Below are positions 52,618 to 64,000 of a stretch of DNA of 64,000 nt, one piece after another. The notes under the pieces were generated by a model. That model saw nothing but the letters and a program-made list of their open reading frames with translations, searched no databases and had not been told where the DNA came from. Source of the DNA: Nibricoccus sp. (GTDB lineage Bacteria > Verrucomicrobiota > Verrucomicrobiia > Opitutales > Opitutaceae). The DNA lies in the NCBI GenBank assembly GCA_047602425.1, contig JASGHG010000001.1, forward strand, positions 3,808,001-3,872,000. Reading direction: 5' to 3'. How positions within the stretch are numbered: position 1 is the stretch's first letter; every line of letters begins with the position of its first letter. A program made the translations under genes and the position numbers.

Positions 52618-53931
52618 TGTTTTGTACCGGGTTGTGGGTAACACATGTACCGCTAGTGAGGTAACACTTTTCAACTCATGGAAGAAGGGCCATGGCCCTT
52701 CTTCCATGAGTTGGGACAACAAAAATACAATCGCGCGACGGCACGAGTTTGTGACGTTCGCGCTTGCGGGCTCGATCAGTATGGTGGCCTTGTGTGAGCG
52801 TTTTGGCGTCAGTCGCAAAACCGGTTACAAGTGGTTGAGGCGTTTCCATGCACAAGGGCCCGCTGGCCTGGAAGACCGGCAGCGTGCACGCGTACGTCGC
52901 AGCAACCAGACCTCATGTTCGGTGGAGACGCGTGTGGTGAAGCTGCGCACGAAGCATCCTACCTGGGGAGCGCGCAAACTACATCGCAGGCTCTGCGATC
53001 TGGGCCACACTTGCATGCCGGCGGTGAGTACCTTCGCACGCATTCTTCGCCGGCGTGGGTGCATTCACCCGCGCCACAGTGCCGCACACCAGCCGATGCA
53101 GTGTTTTGCCAGAGCCGAGCCCAATCAACTCTGGCAAATGGACTTCAAGGGCCACTTTGCCATGCAGCGCGGTGGCCGCTGCCATCCGCTCACGGTGCTC
53201 GACGACCACTCCCGCTTTTCCGTTGGGCTTGAAGCGTGTGCCAACGAGCAGACGGTGTGCGTGCGTGAGCGCTTGGAGCGCATCTTCACCTGCTACGGCC
53301 TGCCCGAACAGATCCTTTGCGACAACGGCCCTCCTTGGGGCGGAACAGGGCCGGAGTTCACCCAGCTCAGCGTCTGGTTGCTGCGCCTGGGCGTGGAGGT
53401 CATCCACGGCAGGCCGTTTCATCCTCAGACCCAGGGCAAAGACGAACGTTTCCACCGCACCCTCAAGGCCGATCTTCTGGACCGCCTCGACTGGCGCGAC
53501 CTCGCCCAGGCACAGCGACGCTTCGATGCGTACCGCCATCTCTACAATTATGACCGTCCACATGAAGCGCTTGATCTGGCCGTGCCAGCCTCCCGCTATC
53601 GCCCCAGTTCCCGCCGAATGCCAGCCAGGCTTCCCATCGCGCAGTATGAAGCCTCGGAGCTGGTCCACCTGGTGAAATCCAAGGGCGAGATCACCTTCCA
53701 AAACCGTTTCTTCTTCATCGGCCAGGCTTTCATCGGACTGCCTGTGGCGCTGCGACCCTGCGCAGCCCACGGCGTTTATCGGGTCTGCTACGCCGCATTT
53801 ACTCTCGGCCTTATCGATCTATCAAAACCAACCAATCTTCCCAAAGGCTGCTACCATCCCCTGCTTCGGCCTACTCATACACTGTAACCCCATTAGCGGT
53901 TCATCTGTTACCCTTGACCCGAATCTATACA
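52618..53931 (+). mobile_element. Complete IS481-family insertion sequence
   Basis: TGT...ACA ends with ~50-bp imperfect IR (tgttttgtaccgggttgtgggtaaca vs tgtatagattcgggtcaagggtaaca); 5-bp direct repeat CTCCG at 52613-52617 and 53932-53936. Confidence 0.92.
52706..53887 (+). CDS. IS481-family DDE transposase
   Basis: LCERFGVSRKTGYKW, WGARKL, LWQMDFKG, DDHSRF, DNGPPW, PQTQGKDERFHRTLK, YNYDRPHEAL. Confidence 0.95.
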   Translation: MSWDNKNTIARRHEFVTFALAGSISMVALCERFGVSRKTGYKWLRRFHAQGPAGLEDRQRARVRRSNQTSCSVETRVVKLRTKHPTWGARKLHRRLCDLGHTCMPAVSTFARILRRRGCIHPRHSAAHQPMQCFARAEPNQLWQMDFKGHFAMQRGGRCHPLTVLDDHSRFSVGLEACANEQTVCVRERLERIFTCYGLPEQILCDNGPPWGGTGPEFTQLSVWLLRLGVEVIHGRPFHPQTQGKDERFHRTLKADLLDRLDWRDLAQAQRRFDAYRHLYNYDRPHEALDLAVPASRYRPSSRRMPARLPIAQYEASELVHLVKSKGEITFQNRFFFIGQAFIGLPVALRPCAAHGVYRVCYAAFTLGLIDLSKPTNLPKGCYHPLLRPTHTL

Positions 53932-54050
53932 CTCCGTGGCGTCCGTGTAGCTACGTCAAGCGCAGGCGACGCGGCGGACGGCTCGGAGAGCCGTCCCTAC
54001 CACCGCAATCCGCGTTTCCGCGAATAAATCCGGATAATCGTCGATAATTT

Positions 54051-54073
54051 TGTGCGGCTTTGGTGGTGAGCGG
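54051..54073 (+). promoter_or_regulatory. Putative ECF-dependent promoter TGTGCGG-N12-GCGG (copy 1)
   Basis: Same motif and spacing upstream of all three ECF genes; 28 nt before ATG 54102. Confidence 0.6.
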
Positions 54074-54101
54074 CTGCTAAAGGTCAAGCGACACAACAGC
54101 T

Positions 54102-55448
54102 ATGACCCACGACGCTGCTCTTCTTCGTCAGTATTTGGATGGTTCGGAAACCGCTTTTGCCGAACTGGTGCGGCTGCACATTGGAGCCGTTCACGGCACC
54201 GCGCTGCGCATGGTGGGTGGCGATGCGCATTTGGCGAACGATGTGACACAGAAAGTTTTCACCGGTCTCGCGCGCAAGGCCGCGAAACTCGTCGACCGTC
54301 CTGTGCTGCTCAGTTGGCTTTATCTCAGCACGCACTACGAAGCCGCGGCCACGGTGAGAGCCGAGCGGCGGAGGCGAACTCGTGAACAGAAGGCGCACGC
54401 CATGCAAGAAATCGAAACTCAAGGGAGCCCGGAACCCGATTGGACCGCACTTCGGCCGGTGATCGATGCGGCTCTGCTGGACTTGAAGGAGAGCGATCGT
54501 GACGCGCTGTTGTTGCGCTTTTTTCATTCACAAACTTTCGCGCAAGTGGGCGAGACGCTCGGACTGAGCGAGAATGCCGCTCGGATGCGCGTTGACCGGG
54601 CCGTCGACAAATTGCGCGATGTGCTGACGCACCGTGGCATTAAATCGACCGCCGCTGCGCTCGGCACCGTGATTGCGACGCAATTGGCCACCGCCGCACC
54701 CGGAGCGCTTGCGGCGACGGTCACGACTGCGGCATTGGCGGGCGCTGCGTCAACTGGTGCCGCCGCTGTGATTTTTATGGGCATGACAAAACTACAATGG
54801 GGCATCGCTGCGGCATTGGCGGTGACGGGAGGATCGGTTATGTGGTCCGAACACCAAACCGCTCAACAATTGCAGGCGGAAAATACCGCCTTGATTCAGC
54901 AGACGGCGGAAGTTTCGCGCTTAAAGACAGAAAATTCCAAATTGGAAGCGAACGCGCGCGCGGCGGAATTGTTGCGCCAACAGGCCAGCGCGTCCGAGGC
55001 GTTGCGAGCCGAGGAGGCGCGCCTGCGCAAAGAAATTCAGCGAATCATGACGGCGCGCAATGCCCAGTTGCTGGCGGGACGTCCGGCTCTGGCGGCTACA
55101 CCAGCACGTGCGCCAACTGCCGCCACGACGGTTGATGGCCTGCGGATTTACCGTTTGAGCGAACTGGACGTGAGACCTACGCCATCCGAGCAACGTGATC
55201 CCGAATTCCCGGGAGGACTCAAGATGGAGGGTTCGGCGGTGATCAGCTGCATTATTCGGCCCGACGGTTCGACCAGCGAATTGAAGGTGGAGCAGGCCAG
55301 CAGCGAGGCTTTTGCCGAGGCGACCAGAAAGGCGCTCGAAAAATGGAAATTCAAACCGGCAATGAAATCGGGTGAGGCGGTTTCTTCGCGCGTGACGGTG
55401 CCCTTTCAAATCGGCCTCAACCAACGAACGGTCCAGGAGTGGCTCTGA
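54102..55448 (+). CDS. ECF sigma factor fused to TM helix, coiled coil and TonB C-terminal domain
   Basis: Sigma2 (AFAELVRLH...DVTQKVF..L...WLY); sigma4 (DRDALLLRFF...VGETLGLSENAARMRVDRA); hydrophobic segment; TonB_C (IRPDGS...ALEKWKFKPAMKSGEAV). Confidence 0.9.
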   Translation: MTHDAALLRQYLDGSETAFAELVRLHIGAVHGTALRMVGGDAHLANDVTQKVFTGLARKAAKLVDRPVLLSWLYLSTHYEAAATVRAERRRRTREQKAHAMQEIETQGSPEPDWTALRPVIDAALLDLKESDRDALLLRFFHSQTFAQVGETLGLSENAARMRVDRAVDKLRDVLTHRGIKSTAAALGTVIATQLATAAPGALAATVTTAALAGAASTGAAAVIFMGMTKLQWGIAAALAVTGGSVMWSEHQTAQQLQAENTALIQQTAEVSRLKTENSKLEANARAAELLRQQASASEALRAEEARLRKEIQRIMTARNAQLLAGRPALAATPARAPTAATTVDGLRIYRLSELDVRPTPSEQRDPEFPGGLKMEGSAVISCIIRPDGSTSELKVEQASSEAFAEATRKALEKWKFKPAMKSGEAVSSRVTVPFQIGLNQRTVQEWL

Positions 55449-56197
55449 TGATGAAAAACACGAGAGGCATTTTCATTCTTTTGGTTCTGGCGGGTGTCTT
55501 AGGGGCATTCGTCTGGTTGAAAGTCGACACAGTCGCACGTCTGCGCGGGGAGCGAGCGCAACTCCGCGCAGACGTTGCCGACTTTACACGCCTGGCCGAG
55601 TTGAACGCTCGCTACAAAACCGCTCCGGCGATCGATTCAGCAAAACTGCAACGCGACGCGAATTCGGTGCCGGTGTTAAATGTGCGGATTGAGCAAATGA
55701 AGGAAACGCTGGCCCGCCTTTCCGCGCTGCCACCGCCGATACCGGAAACGGCTCCGGACTACACCGCGCTTTGGAAAAACGCTGGCCTCTCGACGCCGAC
55801 GAACACGTTGCACTCGATCATCTGGGCTTCGCTCAATGGCGATGTGGATGCGTTAGGCTCGATGCTGTTTTTCGATCAGGAAAGCCGCGAGGCTGTGGAG
55901 ACATTGTGGGCTGGTTTGTCCGAGGCGCAGCGGGCGCAGTACCCTACAGGACAAAAGCTCATGGCGACGCTGATTGCCGGACGTTTGACGCCCGCGCTTT
56001 ATCAGGCCGAATGGAGAGAGGAGACGCGAGAGCAGCCTGATGTGATAAAGGCGCGCTTCTTCCTGCACCGGGCCAATCCCAAGGGGATCGACCTCAAAGC
56101 GGTCTTGTTGAGTTTTCAACGACAAGGAGCGGACTGGCGGCTCATGGTGCCCAAATCCGTCGTCGCGGAGTTTCAGCAGACGTTACAATCGAAGTGA
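55448..56197 (+). CDS. Membrane-anchored hypothetical protein, partner of ECF-TonB 1
   Basis: TGATG overlap with the upstream stop; N-terminal TM, coiled coil, WKNAGLSTPTNTLHSIIWA...FQRQGADWR; paralog of 57739-58479. Confidence 0.8.
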   Translation: MMKNTRGIFILLVLAGVLGAFVWLKVDTVARLRGERAQLRADVADFTRLAELNARYKTAPAIDSAKLQRDANSVPVLNVRIEQMKETLARLSALPPPIPETAPDYTALWKNAGLSTPTNTLHSIIWASLNGDVDALGSMLFFDQESREAVETLWAGLSEAQRAQYPTGQKLMATLIAGRLTPALYQAEWREETREQPDVIKARFFLHRANPKGIDLKAVLLSFQRQGADWRLMVPKSVVAEFQQTLQSK

Positions 56198-56381
56198 ACG
56201 ATTGATTCCGGTTTTTGGCGGGGGGCATGAGCGATTTTCACGAGATTGGTCGTTGGGACGCCTAGATACGTCACACGCAAGCTGCACTGACGGACAACTC
56301 GGAAAGCCGTCCTTACAAACGGGCGTCCTTACCACGGGCAACCTGTGTTCCAGCGATCAAGTTCGGATGATCTGAAAATTC

Positions 56382-56404
56382 TGTGCGGCTTTGTTGGTTG
56401 GCGG
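56382..56404 (+). promoter_or_regulatory. Putative ECF-dependent promoter TGTGCGG-N12-GCGG (copy 2)
   Basis: tgtgcgg-ctttgttggttg-gcgg, 18 nt before ATG 56423. Confidence 0.6.
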
Positions 56405-56422
56405 GTGCTTATATCCAAAGCC

Positions 56423-57736
56423 ATGACAGACGATGCCGCACTTCTTCGCCGTTATCTCGATGGATCGGAGGCCGCGTTTGCGGAACTCGTGCAATGTCAC
56501 ATCGGCGCTGTTTATGGCACGGCTTTGCGCTTGGTCGCGGGCGACGCGCATCTGGCGGATGACGTGACGCAAAAGGTGTTCACCGGGCTGGCCCGCAAGG
56601 CTTCCTCCTTGGCCGACCGGCCCGTCCTGATCGGCTGGTTGTATTTAAGCACTCAATACGAAGCGGCGAAAGCGATCCGCTCCGAGCAGCGCTGGCGCAA
56701 CCGCGAACAAAAGGCTCATGTCATGAATGAAATCGAAAACCAGGGAGCCGTCGAGCCGGATTGGTCCTCCCTGCGTCCGGTCCTCGATTCGGCCATGCGC
56801 GATCTCAAGGAAGGCGACCGCGACGCGCTCCTCCTTCGTTTTTTTCAATCGCGCACACTCGCGGAAGTCGGCGAAGCCCTCGGCCTGAGCGAAAACGCTG
56901 CGCGCATGCGCGTGGATCGCGCACTCGAAAAACTGCACAGCCTGCTCGTGCGGCGTGGCATCAAATCCACCGCCACCGCTCTCGGCACGGTTTTGGCCGG
57001 TCAAGTGGTCACCGCCGCACCTGCTTCGCTTGCCGCAACGGTCACAACGACCGCACTGGCCGGAGCGGCGACGGCCACCGGCGCCACCATTGTATTTATG
57101 GGTATGACAAAATTCCAAGCTGGCGTCGCCGCCGCGATAGTGGTGGCAGGTGGATCGGCTCTTTGGTCCCAACGCGAAACCGGATCGCAGTTGCAGGCGG
57201 AAAATTCCGCCTTGGTTCAGCGAGCGACTGACATTTCACAGGCGAAAACCGAAAGCGCGCGGCTTGACGCTGAGACGCAGAGGATCGCCTTGCTTCGGCA
57301 GGAGGCGGCGAGACTCGACGCGCTGCGCGCCGAGGAAGCGGAGCTGCTCCAGGCATTGCGAGAGCGTGCGAAGCCCGCGGCGGATGCCAGCGTGCCCCTC
57401 CGGCAGACACCCGATGGTAAGCCGCTTTATACCATCAAGCAGCTCGATCAAATGCCCGTGCCCCGACTGCGCGTGCAGCCGGTTTATCCCCTCGAACTTA
57501 AAAAAATAGGCGTGGGCGGTGACGTGCTGGTTGAGTTCACCATCGCGCCGGATGGAGACGTCAAAGACGTCAACGTCGCGAAAGCCACGCACGAGGCGCT
57601 CGCCGCGGCGGCGCAGGAAGCCATTGTGAAATGGAAGTTTAAGCCCGGGCAAAAGGGTGGTCTACCGGTCAACGCGCGCCTGCAGCAGCCTTTTGTCTTT
57701 TCAATCGAGTACGACGATAACGCCGAGTGGTTTTGA
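56423..57736 (+). CDS. ECF sigma factor fused to TM helix, coiled coil and TonB C-terminal domain (paralog 2)
   Basis: Sigma part nearly collinear with 54102; TonB_C QPVYP...GDVLVEFTIAPDG...AIVKWKFKPGQKGGLPV. Confidence 0.9.
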   Translation: MTDDAALLRRYLDGSEAAFAELVQCHIGAVYGTALRLVAGDAHLADDVTQKVFTGLARKASSLADRPVLIGWLYLSTQYEAAKAIRSEQRWRNREQKAHVMNEIENQGAVEPDWSSLRPVLDSAMRDLKEGDRDALLLRFFQSRTLAEVGEALGLSENAARMRVDRALEKLHSLLVRRGIKSTATALGTVLAGQVVTAAPASLAATVTTTALAGAATATGATIVFMGMTKFQAGVAAAIVVAGGSALWSQRETGSQLQAENSALVQRATDISQAKTESARLDAETQRIALLRQEAARLDALRAEEAELLQALRERAKPAADASVPLRQTPDGKPLYTIKQLDQMPVPRLRVQPVYPLELKKIGVGGDVLVEFTIAPDGDVKDVNVAKATHEALAAAAQEAIVKWKFKPGQKGGLPVNARLQQPFVFSIEYDDNAEWF

Positions 57737-57738
57737 AC

Positions 57739-58479
57739 ATGAAAAATCCCAAGGGAAACATCGTGTTGTTGGTTCTGGCGATGGTTGTCGGTTTTGGCCT
57801 TTGGTGGCAGGCAAAAACAAACCTGCGCCTCCGTGAAGAGCAGTCGCGCCTTAAGGAGCAGTCGGCCGAATCGAACCGGATAAAAGCGCTAAAAATGGAA
57901 TCTAAACCGACGACTGTATCCGCTGAGGAACTTCAAAAACTGAACGAGGCTGCGACCGAAGCGGCGGTGGTGCGTGAGCGAATCGCGGAGCTCAAGAAAA
58001 CGAATTCACAAATGTCGGCGACGGCGGCTGTTCCCCGACCTGTTCAGGAGCGTTGGAAAAATCTCGGACAGGCCTCGCCGCGCGATACGCTTCATTCGGT
58101 GATCTGGGCAGCGACGGGCGGAGAGGTGGATGCTCTGGTTTCGTTGCTCGCTTTTGACGCTGAAAGTCGTGCCGCTGCGGACAACATGTTTGCCTCCATT
58201 CCTCCTGAATCCCAGGCGCTGTTTCCCTCGGCGGATAAATTGGTGGCGACGATCATTGCCGGTCGTTTGCCGACAAATTTAACCGCAGCGGAAATCGTCG
58301 AACAAACCGAAGCCAGTTCAGACGCGATTCTCGCGAAGATTCGTCTCCAACGTTCACACAAGTCCAACGATGCGGTTCGTGAAGTGAACTTTCGTTTTCA
58401 ACGAACGGGAACAGACTGGCGAGTGGTGGTCCCGGCGAGCGTGATTGCGGAATTTACGCGTTCGTTGAAAGGGAAATGA
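57739..58479 (+). CDS. Membrane-anchored hypothetical protein, partner of ECF-TonB 2
   Basis: Starts 2 nt after the upstream stop; TM, coiled coil, WKNLGQASPRDTLHSVIWA...FQRTGTDWR. Confidence 0.8.
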   Translation: MKNPKGNIVLLVLAMVVGFGLWWQAKTNLRLREEQSRLKEQSAESNRIKALKMESKPTTVSAEELQKLNEAATEAAVVRERIAELKKTNSQMSATAAVPRPVQERWKNLGQASPRDTLHSVIWAATGGEVDALVSLLAFDAESRAAADNMFASIPPESQALFPSADKLVATIIAGRLPTNLTAAEIVEQTEASSDAILAKIRLQRSHKSNDAVREVNFRFQRTGTDWRVVVPASVIAEFTRSLKGK

Positions 58480-58571
58480 GCTAAACGGCCTGTTTTTGCG
58501 GCGTGGAAAGAGTTTCTCGGTCACGCAGGAGGTTTTGGGTATAATATAACCTAAGTTGCTATGTTATTGTT

Positions 58572-59117
58572 AATTGCTTCGCTGTTTGAGCTCATTGCTT
58601 GGCTGTCAGCGGCGATTGTTTCGTTGTCAGTCTCAATTGCTAGACTGTTTGTCTCAATTGCTAGGCCGTTGATGGCCGTTGCGACGCCGTTCGTGGGCGT
58701 TGCTGAAGTGTCAGCGTCTGTTGCGCGAGTGTTCGTGCCCGTTGTTTGGCCGTCTGGATGCGTTGCTTGAGCGTCAGTGGCGATTGCGAACGTGTTCGTG
58801 TCAATTGTCAGACTGTCAGCGCGTGTTGTTTGGATGTCTGAGTGAGTTGCGATGCTGTCTGCACGGATTGTTTTCGTGTCTGAGTGAGTTGCTTCGGTGT
58901 TTGTGTGAGGTGCGACGATGTTCGTGTGAGGTGCGCGCGTGTCAGCGTGTGTTGTTAAGCTGTTCGGATCAGCTGCGACGGTGTCCGAGTGAGGTGCGAA
59001 GCGGTTTGAACGAGTTGCGACGCGGTTCGTGCGCGTTGCGCGGATGTCCGCGCACCTTGTCGAACGGTTCGGCTTTGTTGCGGAAGCGTCGGAGCGAGAT
59101 GCGCAGCTGCGCGATGA
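58572..59117. repeat. Array of 26 degenerate 21-bp units, consensus approx. nnTTGCnnnnnnGTynGnnnn
   Basis: Units parse at an exact 21-nt period with no indels, from aattgcttcgctgtttgagct to agatgcgcagctgcgcgatga. Confidence 0.8.
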
Positions 59118-59119
59118 TC

Positions 59120-60787
59120 TTACGGCGCCTTCAACAGCTCCGGATGTCCGGCGCGGGCGAGATGGGTTTGGATCTTGGCGCGGGTTTCGGCGGAATTGTC
59201 GACAGAAACAATTTTTTCGAGCAACTCCGAGGCGTGGGCAAAATCACCCGCGCCGACCAAGGCTTCAAGGTCCTTGGACGCGGAGCGTGCGGCATGCTGT
59301 TTTAATCTCTGTATCTCGGCGGTGGGCAGGCCACCGAGAAGATCTGTATTGGAGACGGCGTTGAATTGGCGGACGATGGATTCGTAGGGATATGCGGAGA
59401 CTAACTCGTTGTAACGTTTCGCCTCCAGCAGCTGATCCTTGACGTCATACCCGAGGGTTTTTCGGCGCTTATCGTCCGGTGCCAACGAATCGAAAAGCGC
59501 GAGCGTTTTTTCCTGAGCGCCGAGGGAACGATTGAGAGTCGCAAAATCCTTCAAAGCATCGCGGTCCTTGGCATTTGCCAGAAGGCGTTGCTCAGCCTTG
59601 TCGCGTCGCTCCTGCAGCGCAGCCAGAGCCGGGGGATAGTTCCTTCCTAGTTCGGCAATCGAACTGAGTAGGAAGCTGCTGCGAACACCCCTGTACTTGT
59701 CCATCTGCGGCATTCCAGTGTCGAAGCACCAAAGGTAGTCGGCCAGCGCTTCGTCATACCGCCCGGCCCGAGCGAGCTGTTTGGCATTGTTGAAGCGGGC
59801 TTGGACAGATTCGTCGGTAATAATTTCCTTGGACGTCATGGCGGTCTTTTTATCGATGATGATCGATGAAGTGACGGAGAGAAGTTTTTCGTTGTCGTTG
59901 TCGGCCTCGTCGGCGCGTTTCTTTTCGGCGGCCAGTTGGGACTTCAGGCTATCGAGCTGGGTTTGAAACGCGACTTGGCGTTCGCGCATCGAAGCGGCTT
60001 CGGCGCGGGAAGTATGTAATTGCTGGTTTTGGTAAAGGGCGGTGCCGATGGCGATAAGGGCGGCGATGGTCGTGGCGGTGGCGATGAGTTTGGCGGAGGA
60101 CATGATTTTTAGAAGACTGAAGGCAGTGACGGCGACGGCGGTGGAAGCGAGCGCGGTGGACGTGATTGTGGCGCCGAGTTGGGCGGGCGCGGCGAGGGCG
60201 GCAGGGACGGCCAGAGTGGTGGCAAGCGCAGCGGCGGTGGATTTTACGCCCCGTCGGGCGAGGGAAGTTTCAAGTTGTTCGAGGGCTCGGGTGACGCGCA
60301 TGCGCGCGGCGTTTTCGCCGAGACGCAGGGTGTCGCCGATTTCTGAATACGGGCGGTTTTCGAAATAACGCAGGAGTACGGCCTCGCGGTCGTCGGGCTC
60401 AAGATCGGCGAGGGCATCGTCGATGACCGGGCGAATTTGCGACCAAGCCCGATCGTTGGCCTCGGCGGCGGTGAGTTCGTTCATCGCGTGGCACGTTTGT
60501 TCGCGCTGTACGCGGCGTTGTTCGGCGCGCATGAGTTCGCGTGCCTGGTTGCAGGCGGCGGTGTGCAGCCAGCCGGCGAGGTTCGGGTGGTTGACAAGCG
60601 AACCGGCTTTTTGAGCCAAAAGAGTGAACGTAGCCTGTGCGGCTTCCTCGGCGTTGTGGGAATGACCGTTGGTTTTCCGAAGCGCGGCGAAATAGACGAG
60701 GTTAAGATGCCGTTGCACGAGTTCGGCGAAGGCGTCATCGGCGCGGGTTTCGGCAAATCGGCGGAGCAGGGAGGCATCATCGTTCAT
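59120..60787 (-). CDS. ECF sigma factor with TM helix, coiled coil and TPR-like C-terminal extension
   Basis: AFAELVQRH...AEEAAQATF...WLH; DREAVLLRYF...IGDTLRLGENAARMRVTRA; TM; AKQLARAGRYDEALADYLW. Confidence 0.88.
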   Translation of the reverse strand: MNDDASLLRRFAETRADDAFAELVQRHLNLVYFAALRKTNGHSHNAEEAAQATFTLLAQKAGSLVNHPNLAGWLHTAACNQARELMRAEQRRVQREQTCHAMNELTAAEANDRAWSQIRPVIDDALADLEPDDREAVLLRYFENRPYSEIGDTLRLGENAARMRVTRALEQLETSLARRGVKSTAAALATTLAVPAALAAPAQLGATITSTALASTAVAVTAFSLLKIMSSAKLIATATTIAALIAIGTALYQNQQLHTSRAEAASMRERQVAFQTQLDSLKSQLAAEKKRADEADNDNEKLLSVTSSIIIDKKTAMTSKEIITDESVQARFNNAKQLARAGRYDEALADYLWCFDTGMPQMDKYRGVRSSFLLSSIAELGRNYPPALAALQERRDKAEQRLLANAKDRDALKDFATLNRSLGAQEKTLALFDSLAPDDKRRKTLGYDVKDQLLEAKRYNELVSAYPYESIVRQFNAVSNTDLLGGLPTAEIQRLKQHAARSASKDLEALVGAGDFAHASELLEKIVSVDNSAETRAKIQTHLARAGHPELLKAP

Positions 60788-63048: not shown

Positions 63049-63332
63049 GGCAGAGTAACCCATTAGGTTACTTTGTCTTTGGAGACGTTATTCGCCACAG
63101 AAAGCGCAGAAGACGCAAAAGCGGTGGGAGGGAGGGCGGATTCTTTGCGTATCTTGGCGGACTTGGTGTGAAAACGGTTTGGATCCGGGCCGTTTTGAAC
63201 AGAAGGCCGCGAAGGGAACGAAGCGTTTTTTGGGACTGCTCAGTCGAGTGTCTTGGCTCGGTTGAAGAATCGAGCAACGAACCTTTGTGCGGGTAGGTGA
63301 CAGCCGCTTCGTTTCCGTCGTTGGCTTCTGTT
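63049..63332. repeat. Cluster of intergenic palindromes and inverted repeats
   Basis: agagtaacccattaggttacttt palindrome; cgcagaagacgcaaaa/tttgcgtatctt pair; aacagaaggccgcgaagggaacgaagcg (63198-63225) vs inverted 63305-63332. Confidence 0.65.
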
Positions 63333-64000
63333 AAATGGTTTTCCGTTTGCGCAGAGCGAAGACGAGGGCGAGGGCGCCGAGGAACCAAGTGCTCGGGGCG
63401 CCACCACCGCCACCACCGCTGGGTGGCGGGACTGAGCCGGAGGAGGAGCCGCCGCCTGACGAGGACGAACTGCTGGAAGACGAACTCGAGCTGCTCGACG
63501 ATGAACTGGAGGAGGACGACGAACTCGATGAAGAAGAACTGGAACTACTCGACGAACTGGACGATGAGGAACTGCTGCTGCTGGACGAGGAAACATTAAT
63601 AACGAAGGGCGAGCTGACAATCGTGGTTCCGCCACCGCTCGTCAGTACGGCCGTGTAGGTGCCGGAGTGGTTCGTTTGTGCATTGGCGACGGTGTACGAC
63701 AGTGAGTTTGCGCCGGGGATATCGAAGTTGTTGAGGCGCCATTGGAAGCCGGTGATGGCGGACACGCTCGTGACAGAGTTAAGGGTGAACGAGGAGCCAG
63801 GGACAACATTGGAAGTCGGGCCGGTAATACTGGCCGTAAAGACCGGCAGCGACGGCGACGCGGCGCCGAAGGTGTTGCCGGCGTAGCTTACGATGGTGGT
63901 GGCGACGTCGGCCGTCGGAATAAGCGCATAGGAGTAGTTCGGTGTGAACACGATGTCGTTGCCGGTGTCGGGCGCGATGCCGGTGCAGTTGGTATAGCTG
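63331..64000 (-). CDS. C-terminal part of a surface glycan-active protein (pectate-lyase-like end, Ig domain, 45-Ser linker, GlyGly-type sorting tail); partial
   Basis: VFTPNYSYALIPTADV...AG resembles a PL1 C-terminus; Ig motif FQWRLN..DIPGA....YTV.NAQ..HSGTYT; Ser45; GGGGGGAPSTWFLGALALVFALRKRK. Confidence 0.75.
   Translation of the reverse strand, partial: SYTNCTGIAPDTGNDIVFTPNYSYALIPTADVATTIVSYAGNTFGAASPSLPVFTASITGPTSNVVPGSSFTLNSVTSVSAITGFQWRLNNFDIPGANSLSYTVANAQTNHSGTYTAVLTSGGGTTIVSSPFVINVSSSSSSSSSSSSSSSSSSSSSSSSSSSSSSSSSSSSSSSSSSSSSGGGSSSGSVPPPSGGGGGGAPSTWFLGALALVFALRKRKTI

Follow-up and report, generated by a model that had tools for sequence, protein, structure and literature searches.

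Several described systems resemble parts of the locus analysed here. IutY of Pseudomonas putida, as described in the accounts cited, is an ECF243 sigma/anti-sigma hybrid released by Prc and RseP (PMC5411451, PMC8999054). In the Bacteroidetes group ECF255, an anti-sigma TonB_C beyond one membrane helix is proposed to sense Ton-box-containing transporters; this is a prediction only (PMC7826278). The entry for ECF57 in the same paper gives a group found 100% in Planctomycetes, with an invariant Cys pair in sigma2 and sigma4 and no conserved promoter. Starts within genes are described for ArcB-C and RpnE-C/ypaA, in which translation beginning in frame at a domain boundary yields a short isoform that can join or block the long one (bioRxiv 10.1101/520783), and RpnS/RpnL is a further case of genes within genes (bioRxiv 10.1101/2023.05.02.539157). 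The M56 peptidase-TonB_C fusions TonB1 and TonB10 of B. thetaiotaomicron are described as functionally uncharacterised (bioRxiv 10.1101/2023.07.07.548152). No published account of a sigma-TonB_C fusion was found in the literature searched, in agreement with an earlier note on this DNA that knew of no functional characterisation; ECF255 and IutY anticipate parts of the architecture. In the portion of the ECF 2.0 supplement covered, ten passages name Verrucomicrobia and none of them contains it.

The window, the whole 64,000-nucleotide stretch analysed, contains two tandem modules on the forward strand. Family promoter-like box 1 (TGTGCGG ... GCGGCTGCTA; 54046..54079; score 28.0, genome rank 2) precedes S1 (54102..55448, 448 aa), which comprises ECF sigma2-sigma4, an Ala/Thr linker, a likely membrane helix, a coiled coil, TonB_C and an EWL tail. 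Partner 1 (55448..56197, 249 aa), with an N-terminal membrane helix, a coiled coil and an NTF2-like domain, is joined to S1 by a TGATG overlap. The second module consists of box 2 (TGTGCGG ... GCGGGTGCT; 56377..56411; score 28.0, genome rank 3), S2 (56423..57736, 437 aa; S1-like architecture, EWF tail) and, after a 2-nt gap, partner 2 (57739..58479, 246 aa), a paralog of partner 1 at 40% identity. The start of S2 is most likely the ATG at 56423, which was preferred to a GTG at 56345. Identity between S1 and S2 is 74% in the sigma part, 67% in the linker, 64% in the hydrophobic segment, 41% in the coiled coil and 36% in TonB_C. This layout bears out the earlier note, which had described the domain order, the two C-termini, the similar sigma halves with diverged outer halves, and the tight paralogous followers of about 250 aa. 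A third member of the tethered-ECF family (59120..60787, reverse strand), which has an internal Met229, a box of its own and another kind of helical domain at its C-terminus, is convergent with the two modules and has no partner gene.

Both fusions exceed the Pfam cut-offs for Sigma70_r2, Sigma70_r4/r4_2 and TonB_C (E = 7e-13 in S1, 5e-18 in S2), a check that the earlier note had proposed, and score 59.8 and 61.7 bits against TIGR02937 (cut-off 42.9). With sigma2 and sigma4 only, and no sigma3, they are ECF (group 4) sigma factors. The outer domain matches PF03544/TIGR01352, has the TonB-CTD fold and carries the YP motif, as FP in S1 and YP in S2; among 118 fusions the first position is Y or F in 99% and the second is P in 98%. 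In the AlphaFold model of S2, TonB_C resembles FoxA-bound TonB (6i97_D; TM by target 0.92, rmsd 1.1 Å, 89 columns), and residues 231-319 form one unbroken helix, with pLDDT below 50 across residues 214-251. The membrane helix is marginal by hydropathy: the best 19-residue Kyte-Doolittle mean is 1.62 in S1 and 1.76 in S2, and the segment in relatives (n=53) has a median of 1.74, reaching at least 1.6 in 39/53. The anchor core averages 0.13 charged residues across 126 family genes. It is separated from sigma4 by a conserved linker of 45 residues and from TonB_C by a spacer with a median of 92 residues. The predicted topology, a cytosolic sigma tethered through this helix, is very probable, and the single-polypeptide sigma-anchor-TonB_C fusion put forward earlier is supported with a weakly hydrophobic anchor.

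The anchor of an energy-transducing TonB carries Ser-x3-His for coupling to ExbB/ExbD. This motif (SxxxH) occurs in 0/118 fusion anchors, and an ExbB-like gene lies near the module at 0/68 loci, so that the fusions have neither the anchor nor the exbBD linkage of an energy-transducing TonB. Because the anchor is without Ser-x3-His, TonB_C of the S1/S2 type likely listens rather than energises transport.

The partner is conserved and dedicated, as the synteny survey suggested by the earlier note indicates: it lies directly after 57/70 such fusions in related genomes, and 10 of the 67 fusions with room for it lack it. Residues 1-96 of the partner align to residues 226-321 of the fusion (HHalign probability 98.4, E 6e-15), with partner Met1 opposite a conserved internal Met226. 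By this homology the partner is paralogous to the outer half of the fusion and has no sigma part. Among non-TonB family members with room, a +1 membrane gene is present in 19/64; all 19 match the post-Met half of their own sigma (E 9e-57 to 0.005), many of them on through the C-terminal domain. Neither partner has a family match in Pfam or NCBIfam. The partner domain has an NTF2-like alpha+beta fold (3k7c_A: Z 9.7, rmsd 2.9 Å, 102 aligned; Foldseek E 1.9e-4; Atlas DUF4878 TM 0.60), and elsewhere this domain is itself fused to a sigma factor (L008; an Atlas cluster of 240). When Pfam NTF2-clan profiles were run on 150 members, no family matched more than five, with DUF4864 in two at E about 1e-3.

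Met226 lies in an A/T-rich, in-frame region at 54765..54797 of the forward strand in S1 (ATG 54777, second ATG 54783) and at 57086..57118 of the same strand in S2 (ATG 57098, second ATG 57104), and is conserved in at least 90% of the 118 fusions. Across codons -4 to +6 of 66 genes, 291/620 end in A or T, where the encoded amino acids would lead one to expect 134.6 (z 15.8); a second, non-overlapping set, with the Met present in 60/70 genes, gives 263/583 against 145.9 (z 11.7). By the same test the count at other internal Mets is 962, with 938 expected (z 0.9), and annotated starts reach z 5.0; because the family genes are kin, all these z-scores and the p-values below exaggerate independence. 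Silent sites away from the internal ATG are near saturation (0.43 vs 0.37 by chance), and the top four of 428 silent-site columns are -1, -2, +4 and +5 around it. A conserved Lys is encoded by AAA in 103/115 ATG-bearing genes and in 3/9 without a start codon (p 2.7e-4), the A/T shift weakens in genes that have lost the ATG, and folding around it is -4.0 vs -6.5 kcal/mol in synonymous controls. Selection acts on silent sites around the internal ATG. The locus combines two sequence marks of an in-frame internal start, a conserved start codon at a domain boundary and silent-site selection.

Translation from this ATG is probable on these grounds, and would likely give sigma-less isoforms of 223 aa (S1) and 212 aa (S2). 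When internal ATGs are ranked by a classifier of start sites that was trained on this genome (AUC 0.95), those of S1 and S2 reach no higher than the 83rd-93rd percentile; 7/10 paralogs bearing the Met exceed the 95th percentile, and in relatives 25/75 pass, compared with 14/75 annotated starts and 17/491 other Mets. The -1 base is mostly T at the internal ATG, whereas C is preferred at genome starts, and the 60-nt folds at the S1 and S2 sites are not weaker than dinucleotide shuffles (z 0.29, 0.72).

The modules belong to a larger tethered-ECF family, with 11 members in this genome, in which several C-terminal domains, TonB_C among them, are interchangeable. Such domains have been exchanged among sigma cores; cores bearing TonB_C are scattered across the tree, and TonB_C is highly mobile here, with 29 matches in this genome. 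Named relatives are Opitutaceae. Their annotation reads 'TonB family protein' or plain 'sigma factor', so that annotation pipelines hide the system. Stand-alone TonB_C proteins are numerous in the lineage. The genome encodes 36 receptor plugs, three FecR matches of the classical signalling type, two M50 and four S41 proteases. No fusion or partner has a FecR match, and the module has no linked protease gene. TonB-dependent receptors lie near the module at 5/68 loci (4.9 expected), which is no enrichment; in one genus a receptor stands head-to-head with it (at L100, where the receptor has an STN signalling domain, and at L103).

A TGT-core anchor is present in 85/91 family upstream regions, and the box, scored by a model whose training excluded this genome and its genus, is likely recognised by the family's own sigma. 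It also precedes a signal-peptide TonB_C gene in four genomes of two genera (scores 20.3, 18.6, 21.3, 13.3); the other 28 TonB_C ORFs among the matches listed score at most 6.3 or are not scorable. Before the receptor genes of this genome it is found at 0/36, with a best score of 11.1 (random-window 99th percentile 11.4). Autoregulation together with induction of the signal-peptide TonB_C gene seems somewhat more probable than its absence.

Taken together, these features suggest a sensor with several subunits, in which each module supplies an ECF sigma fused to TonB_C, with a likely membrane helix and a coiled coil between the two, and the internal start likely supplies a sigma-less copy of the outer half. 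Since the fusion likely yields a sigma-less product and the partner is built like it, the three would likely assemble into a mixed membrane sensor. Binding of a ligand to TonB_C, most likely an exposed TonB box, which domains of this type bind by beta-augmentation, would then trigger proteolysis and free the sigma. As a whole, this reading is plausible and held tentatively. Of its parts, two-step proteolytic release, by analogy with IutY, has a fairly good chance of being right; joining of the subunits via membrane helix and coiled coil, in which the short ones would shield the fusion or determine its threshold, is slightly favoured; and the TonB box as ligand is possible, if short of probable. 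A bolder version is somewhat unlikely: a heteromeric one-component receptor of Opitutaceae made from a gene within a gene, in which fusion, isoform and NTF2-like paralog would be held together by their homologous membrane helices and coiled coils and whose motor-uncoupled TonB_C would count TonB boxes across all receptors (or invading bacteriocins), bypass FecR and receptor signalling domains and induce a soluble TonB_C decoy, with the internal ATG as a joint for swapping sensor cassettes. The earlier note had foreseen the fusion, the partner and an intact TonB_C, and these stand; its direct sensing of receptor occupancy finds no support in the context, given the receptor counts near the module, the box at none of the receptor genes and the mobility of TonB_C. 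The likely internal start, the homology of partner and outer half, the promoter-like box and the wider family were absent from it.

The same receptor counts bear on two other accounts of what TonB_C reads. The tethered two-product design could serve envelope surveillance rather than nutrient sensing. TonB_C would then read another exposed beta-strand, offered for example by outer-membrane proteins that have mis-assembled or by the TonB boxes of bacteriocins entering the cell, and the output would be a soluble TonB_C that acts as decoy or chaperone. The lack of receptor linkage, the box before the signal-peptide TonB_C gene and not at receptor genes, and the abundance of stand-alone TonB_C proteins all agree with this, as do the statements in PMC11658791 that TonB-box function rests on secondary structure more than on side chains and that TonB-dependent colicins carry a TonB box. 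The TonB_C fold is nevertheless nearest to receptor-bound TonB, the genome has its 36 plugs and one genus its head-to-head receptor, and surveillance is judged unlikely. One-protein cell-surface signalling along the lines of the earlier note, in which the fusion reads ligand loading of a dedicated receptor and induces it with the partner as helper, would suit the intact TonB_C, the spacer, the divergent receptor at L100 and L103 and the ECF255 prediction. It is improbable: 63/68 loci have no cognate receptor, no receptor gene of this genome carries the box, and FecR matches are present for classical signalling.

Two further alternatives concern the internal ATG and the release step. The silent-site signal could mark something other than a start: an RNA cleavage or pausing site, a sigma-freeing +1 frameshift, in which YTT ATG A would be read as TTA TGA, or the relic of a gene captured at its start codon, leaving only the full-length fusion and an ordinary accessory subunit. 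A +1-frame stop does follow within five codons in 67/75 genes (226/492 genome starts), TTT or CTT stands at -1 in 43/66, and Ser+1 is AGY in 36/37, which mutational inertia might also preserve; in Planctomycetes, sigma cores that were duplicated are proposed to have captured the genes downstream (PMC7671368), and the scatter of TonB_C-bearing cores on the tree would fit such capture. Slippery codon and stop, however, do not go together (Fisher p 0.72 and 1.0), the A/T shift continues downstream (AAA, CTA) as at true starts, and AAA is kept in 3/4 genes in which a nearby GTG, TTG or CTG replaces the ATG but mostly lost without a start codon. A relic would have decayed at silent sites this close to saturation, and this explanation is quite doubtful. 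It is very improbable that the sigma is active while tethered, with oligomer change and not cleavage as the switch; the conserved sigma4-membrane linker and the absence of a module-linked protease gene would suit this, whereas IutY, the sole characterised hybrid, requires Prc and RseP, and the Gly/Ala-rich weak helix would fit intramembrane cleavage.

If the preferred reading of a tethered sigma in a mixed sensor is true, a common Opitutaceae regulator family follows an unrecognised design rule, in which a single gene gives both the tethered sigma and a subunit lacking sigma, and a duplicate of the short form acts as dedicated partner. It would also offer a directly testable case of TonB_C as a sensor and not a motor arm, so far only predicted (ECF255, M56-TonB_C). 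The conserved box could be used directly as a reporter, and the modular joint points to a natural sensor chassis of the plug-and-play kind.

Compared with the systems described above, S1 and S2 share with IutY a cytosolic ECF, a membrane helix and a periplasmic domain in a single chain, and the ties of IutY to TonB-dependent signalling count as a further likeness. The periplasmic part of IutY is, in those accounts, an anti-sigma domain with a dedicated receptor, whereas that of S1/S2 is a coiled coil with TonB_C; the modules have no FecR-type anti-sigma domain and no linked cognate receptor, and add a paralogous partner and a likely internal start. With ECF255 they share TonB_C as a proposed ECF sensor beyond a membrane helix. 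In that group the +1 gene encodes a separate anti-sigma that carries TonB_C together with a carboxypeptidase-regulatory-like domain, and the promoter is TATGGAT/GCATCT. In the modules the sigma itself bears TonB_C, the +1 product is NTF2-like and the box is a different one; these three differences set them apart from ECF255.

ECF57 and the duplicated planctomycete ECFs (PMC7671368) resemble the family in their many paralogs per genome, conserved sigma cores, unrelated membrane-anchored C-terminal extensions and proposed membrane release. S1 and S2 have such an extension, on one helix that is marginal by hydropathy. Residues 1-180 contain no Cys in S1 and one in S2, and the best Cys column is occupied in 14/118 and 13/141 sequences; this lack of an invariant pair, the Opitutaceae affiliation of the named relatives and the strongly conserved box set them apart from ECF57. 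The passages on these groups in PMC7826278 and PMC7671368 do not mention TonB_C, a partner or an internal start.

In the rpnE case the short isoform is duplicated by a separate gene, and the partner is the parallel to this in the modules. The described genes within genes are a sensor kinase and nuclease toxins, proven by experiment, whereas the case for S1/S2 comes from sequence evolution. Like the M56-TonB_C proteins, S1 and S2 join TonB_C to a signalling-type module; the output is a BlaR1-type protease in the former and a sigma factor in the latter.

The two tandem fusion genes, S1 (window positions 54102-55448; 448 aa) and S2 (read from the ATG at 56423-57736; 437 aa), both encode Sigma70_r2, Sigma70_r4 and TonB_C above the curated cut-offs of the Pfam and NCBIfam profiles. 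In the AlphaFold model of S2 (mean pLDDT 77; built with 118 alignment rows), the sigma helices are followed by a pair of short helices in the linker and a long helix at residues 231-319; its TonB_C domain can be superposed on FoxA-bound TonB at 1.1 Å over 89 columns. The sigma/TonB_C fusion described in the earlier note is thus upheld by both profiles and fold. Its observation that similar sigma halves carry diverged outer halves also holds: identity between S1 and S2 is 74% over the sigma region but falls to 41% over the coiled coil and 36% over TonB_C. The membrane segment that the note placed between sigma4 and TonB_C stands in part. A hydrophobic segment is present, but its Kyte-Doolittle values (1.62 in S1, 1.76 in S2) are marginal against the membrane-segment threshold of 1.6, and residues 214-251 of the S2 model are poorly modelled; membrane topology of the fusions is therefore only likely. 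Across the family of tethered ECFs, the segment has a median value of 1.74 and reaches at least 1.6 in 39 of 53 members.

No sigma-70 promoter was found on the plus strand of the module, and an IS481-family transposase (52622-53887, +) lies directly 5' of module 1. Between the module and the convergent third ECF gene (59120-60787, −), positions 58550-59100 are of low complexity, with open frames on both strands, Thr/Ala/Asp-rich on the minus strand. Positions 63331-64000 (−) take in the end of an open frame of 2646 codons, whose features are a long poly-Ser linker and a sorting-like tail at the C-terminus. A locus from a named Nibricoccus genome (L001) has a similar open frame; the tandem of two modules also occurs in that genome.

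Each fusion stop codon is abutted by a partner gene (products of 249 and 246 aa). Of 303 matches among Opitutaceae genomes, those within the first 150 that covered the model to its end were kept, giving 68 neighbourhoods with 70 fusions. A partner lies directly 3' of 57 of these fusions, with 3 at contig ends and 10 lacking one, which confirms in other genomes the dedicated partner claimed for this module. At E ≤0.001, 1925 representatives of the partner family were counted; the family occurs in 106 of 301 Opitutaceae genomes, and across the order it was found in 3 of 201, all three in Opitutaceae. Searching genome contigs for partner 1 by direct pattern returned two loci only.

In the partner model (pLDDT 92), the C-terminal domain is NTF2-like (3k7c, Z 9.7). 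In other family members this domain is fused to sigma (locus L008; an Atlas cluster of 240), and such fusions are sometimes followed by a partner that repeats it. Partner residues 1-96 align with fusion residues 226-321, placing Met1 on the conserved internal Met226 (profile comparison, probability 98.4). Among non-TonB members, the +1 gene is a membrane gene in 19 of 64 with room for one (6 rows near a locus end left out), and each matches the outer half of its own sigma. From these two observations, the partner is, as judged by sequence, a sigma-less paralog of the fusion's outer half. TonB_C may have replaced the NTF2-like domain in the fusion, with the partner retaining it, and the common membrane helix and coiled coil may mediate assembly of fusion and partner. 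A C-terminal Trp tail is present in 45 of 57 fusions with a partner versus 0 of 10 without. As 6 of these 10 belong to one clade, together with tail-less, partner-bearing genes, the tail as a possible ligand for the partner is a lead only.

Met226, a probable hidden translation start, is conserved at 90% or more, and the residues after it are those of a typical N-terminus: Ser/Thr, Lys, and a hydrophobic run. Among 66 non-redundant genes (Met anchorable in 75 of 80; 9 near-copies removed), A or T is the last base of codons −4 to +6 around this Met in 291 of 620 cases, where 134.6 would be expected from the amino acids encoded. Because the genes are related, this and the other statistics on the internal ATG overstate independence. 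The excess is absent at other internal Mets and smaller at annotated starts, and the shift is repeated in a second set of 60 genes with an anchorable Met (of 70 non-TonB genes). Away from this region, silent sites are close to saturation; of 428 columns, the four with the strongest signal lie to either side of the internal ATG. The conserved Lys is present in its column in 128 of 141 rows. AAA encodes it in 103 of 115 genes that have the ATG, in 3 of 4 where a near-cognate codon stands instead, and in 3 of 9 that have neither. The base at −1 of the internal ATG is mostly T, where the source genome usually has C. A start classifier places the internal ATGs of S1 and S2 at only the 83rd-93rd percentile; 7 of 10 paralogs exceed the 95th, and the internal ATGs of relatives score equal to their own annotated starts. 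One alternative is a programmed +1 frameshift, and a +1-frame stop does follow the internal ATG in 67 of 75 genes. The slippery codon and this stop do not co-occur, so frameshifting is not supported and would rank below initiation at the internal ATG. A 209-aa database protein (P0282), encoded on a contig of 1.9 kb, has precisely the internal Met as its first residue (MGMTKLQ) and WF as its last two; it is either a stand-alone gene or a truncated call and is left out of the counts.

Upstream of family genes lies a two-block motif, TTTGTGCGGTTT and GCGGGTGCTA separated by 5-7 bases and positioned ~26-51 bases 5' of the start, with its core in 85 of 91 upstream regions. When a model of this box, built from 71 sequences of other genera, is run genome-wide, family sigma genes take ranks 1-6 and 8; rank 7 goes to a gene that lies immediately 5' of a further family sigma. 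By its layout and distribution, the box may well serve the family as its own promoter. The real model yields 14 sites scoring at least 20 versus 2-4 with shuffled models, making single sites near that score uncertain. A signal-peptide TonB_C gene (G000:C1:3353145-3353696, −, in the source genome) reaches a score of 20.3, and the box also precedes the corresponding genes of three more genomes (L113, L119, L122), making four genomes in two genera; the gene is a candidate regulon member. At L096 and L122, it lies directly 5' of a fusion.

The source genome encodes 11 sigma factors with a common core and linker and unrelated C-terminal domains. Of 8000 scored candidates, 2317 are S2 relatives; 119 of the best 120 carry TonB_C, and the organism-named ones are Opitutaceae or Verrucomicrobia. 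The fusion is matched at E ≤1e-90 in 131 of 301 Opitutaceae genomes (five candidates scored per genome) and, phylum-wide, at 1e-45 in 21 of 301, five of them outside Opitutaceae; among the matches listed, full-length TonB_C fusions are confined to Opitutaceae. When 144 sigma cores were placed on a quick tree, those with TonB_C were interspersed with other C-terminal types, which suggests that C-terminal cassettes have been exchanged between cores. This quick tree does not show a single origin of TonB_C sigma cores: the partner-bearing ones require 23 changes, of which starred branches force at least 6. Two more tethered ECFs with +1 partners occur in the source genome (L107, G000:C1:1810973-1813466, +; L108, 3458494-3460960, −), each partner having a helical C-terminal domain that by eye resembles that of its own sigma (E 5e-10 for L107); the L108 sigma has no internal Met. 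At G000:C1:681832-683700 (L110), the family box and first family-sigma codons (MMDDAELLRR) are cut short by a stop after 17 codons, and the ORF that follows has, by eye, beta-lactamase-like motifs; this is probably a deleted family member. One locus (L044, G223:C102:36221-54708) holds at least six family sigma genes with differing C-terminal domains within 18 kb.

Ser-x3-His is the coupling motif of the TonB anchor; it occurs in 0 of 118 fusion anchors, and 0 of 68 loci have an ExbB-like gene near the fusion, which makes a role as energiser unlikely. The fusion TonB_C retains its fold and YP motif, with ~92 residues separating it from the anchor. TonB binds the TonB box by beta-augmentation (excerpt of PMC11658791). 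The earlier note had proposed direct sensing of receptor occupancy. Genomic context does not favor this: receptors occur at 5 of 68 loci versus 4.9 expected from source-genome density, and none of the 36 receptor genes in the source genome is preceded by a box above the 99th percentile of random windows, ruling out a receptor regulon there. A head-to-head receptor beside the module occurs in one genus only (L100, 6363-9101; L103, 6390-9056; two genomes), the L100 receptor having an STN domain. Beyond the partner, no neighbor is conserved in more than 10 of the 68 loci; an ABC-transporter/esterase cluster recurs most often (10), followed by a vWA-YfbK protein together with a small ECF (6). We tentatively regard the TonB box as the most likely ligand, read globally and not from one cognate receptor. 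The source genome has 29 TonB_C matches, versus 5 ExbB/MotA and 36 receptor plugs; many of its TonB_C proteins are small signal-peptide or multi-domain forms.

The explanation that best fits overall, held at somewhat below even confidence, is a tethered sigma with sigma-less subunits, proteolytic release, and self-transcription. At rest, the fusion would lie in the inner membrane bundled with sigma-less subunits, which could shield it or titrate ligand. Ligand binding would loosen the bundle, whereupon site-1 and site-2 proteases would free the sigma. The source genome has M50 and S41 protease families, and the sigma of IutY, the Pseudomonas putida sigma/anti-sigma hybrid, is freed by site-1/site-2 proteolysis (portions of PMC8999054, PMC5411451). 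Once freed, the sigma would transcribe the operon that encodes it, together with the gene for soluble TonB_C. A bolder reading, and a rather unlikely one, is a heteromeric receptor made from a gene within a gene, which would count TonB boxes and respond with a decoy.

The module is real and conserved and, in agreement with the earlier note, is uncharacterised within the literature searched. In that literature, no description was found of a sigma-TonB_C fusion, its partner, or an internal start in an ECF hybrid. As far as these searches reach, the tethered sigma and its partner are membrane-tethered ECF signalling of a variant form not described before. A plasmid search returned no relative of ECF57, the planctomycete membrane-anchored ECFs, for comparison. 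Other comparisons drew on parts of the accounts of planctomycete ECFs (PMC7671368), M56-TonB_C proteins (bioRxiv 10.1101/2023.07.07.548152), and genes-within-genes (bioRxiv 10.1101/520783). A vWA-YfbK (DUF3520) protein lies beside six fusions (L038, L041, L043, L050, L067, L077), with a small ECF nearby in five; this echoes the vWA/DUF3520 neighbor of ECF255, the Bacteroidetes group with TonB_C on a separate anti-sigma (excerpt of PMC7826278). By the defining tests in the portions consulted of PMC8999054, PMC5411451, and PMC7826278, the module is not IutY, ECF255, or ECF57; it is best likened to a cross between the hybrid form of IutY and the predicted TonB_C sensor of ECF255, built on an ECF57-like chassis.
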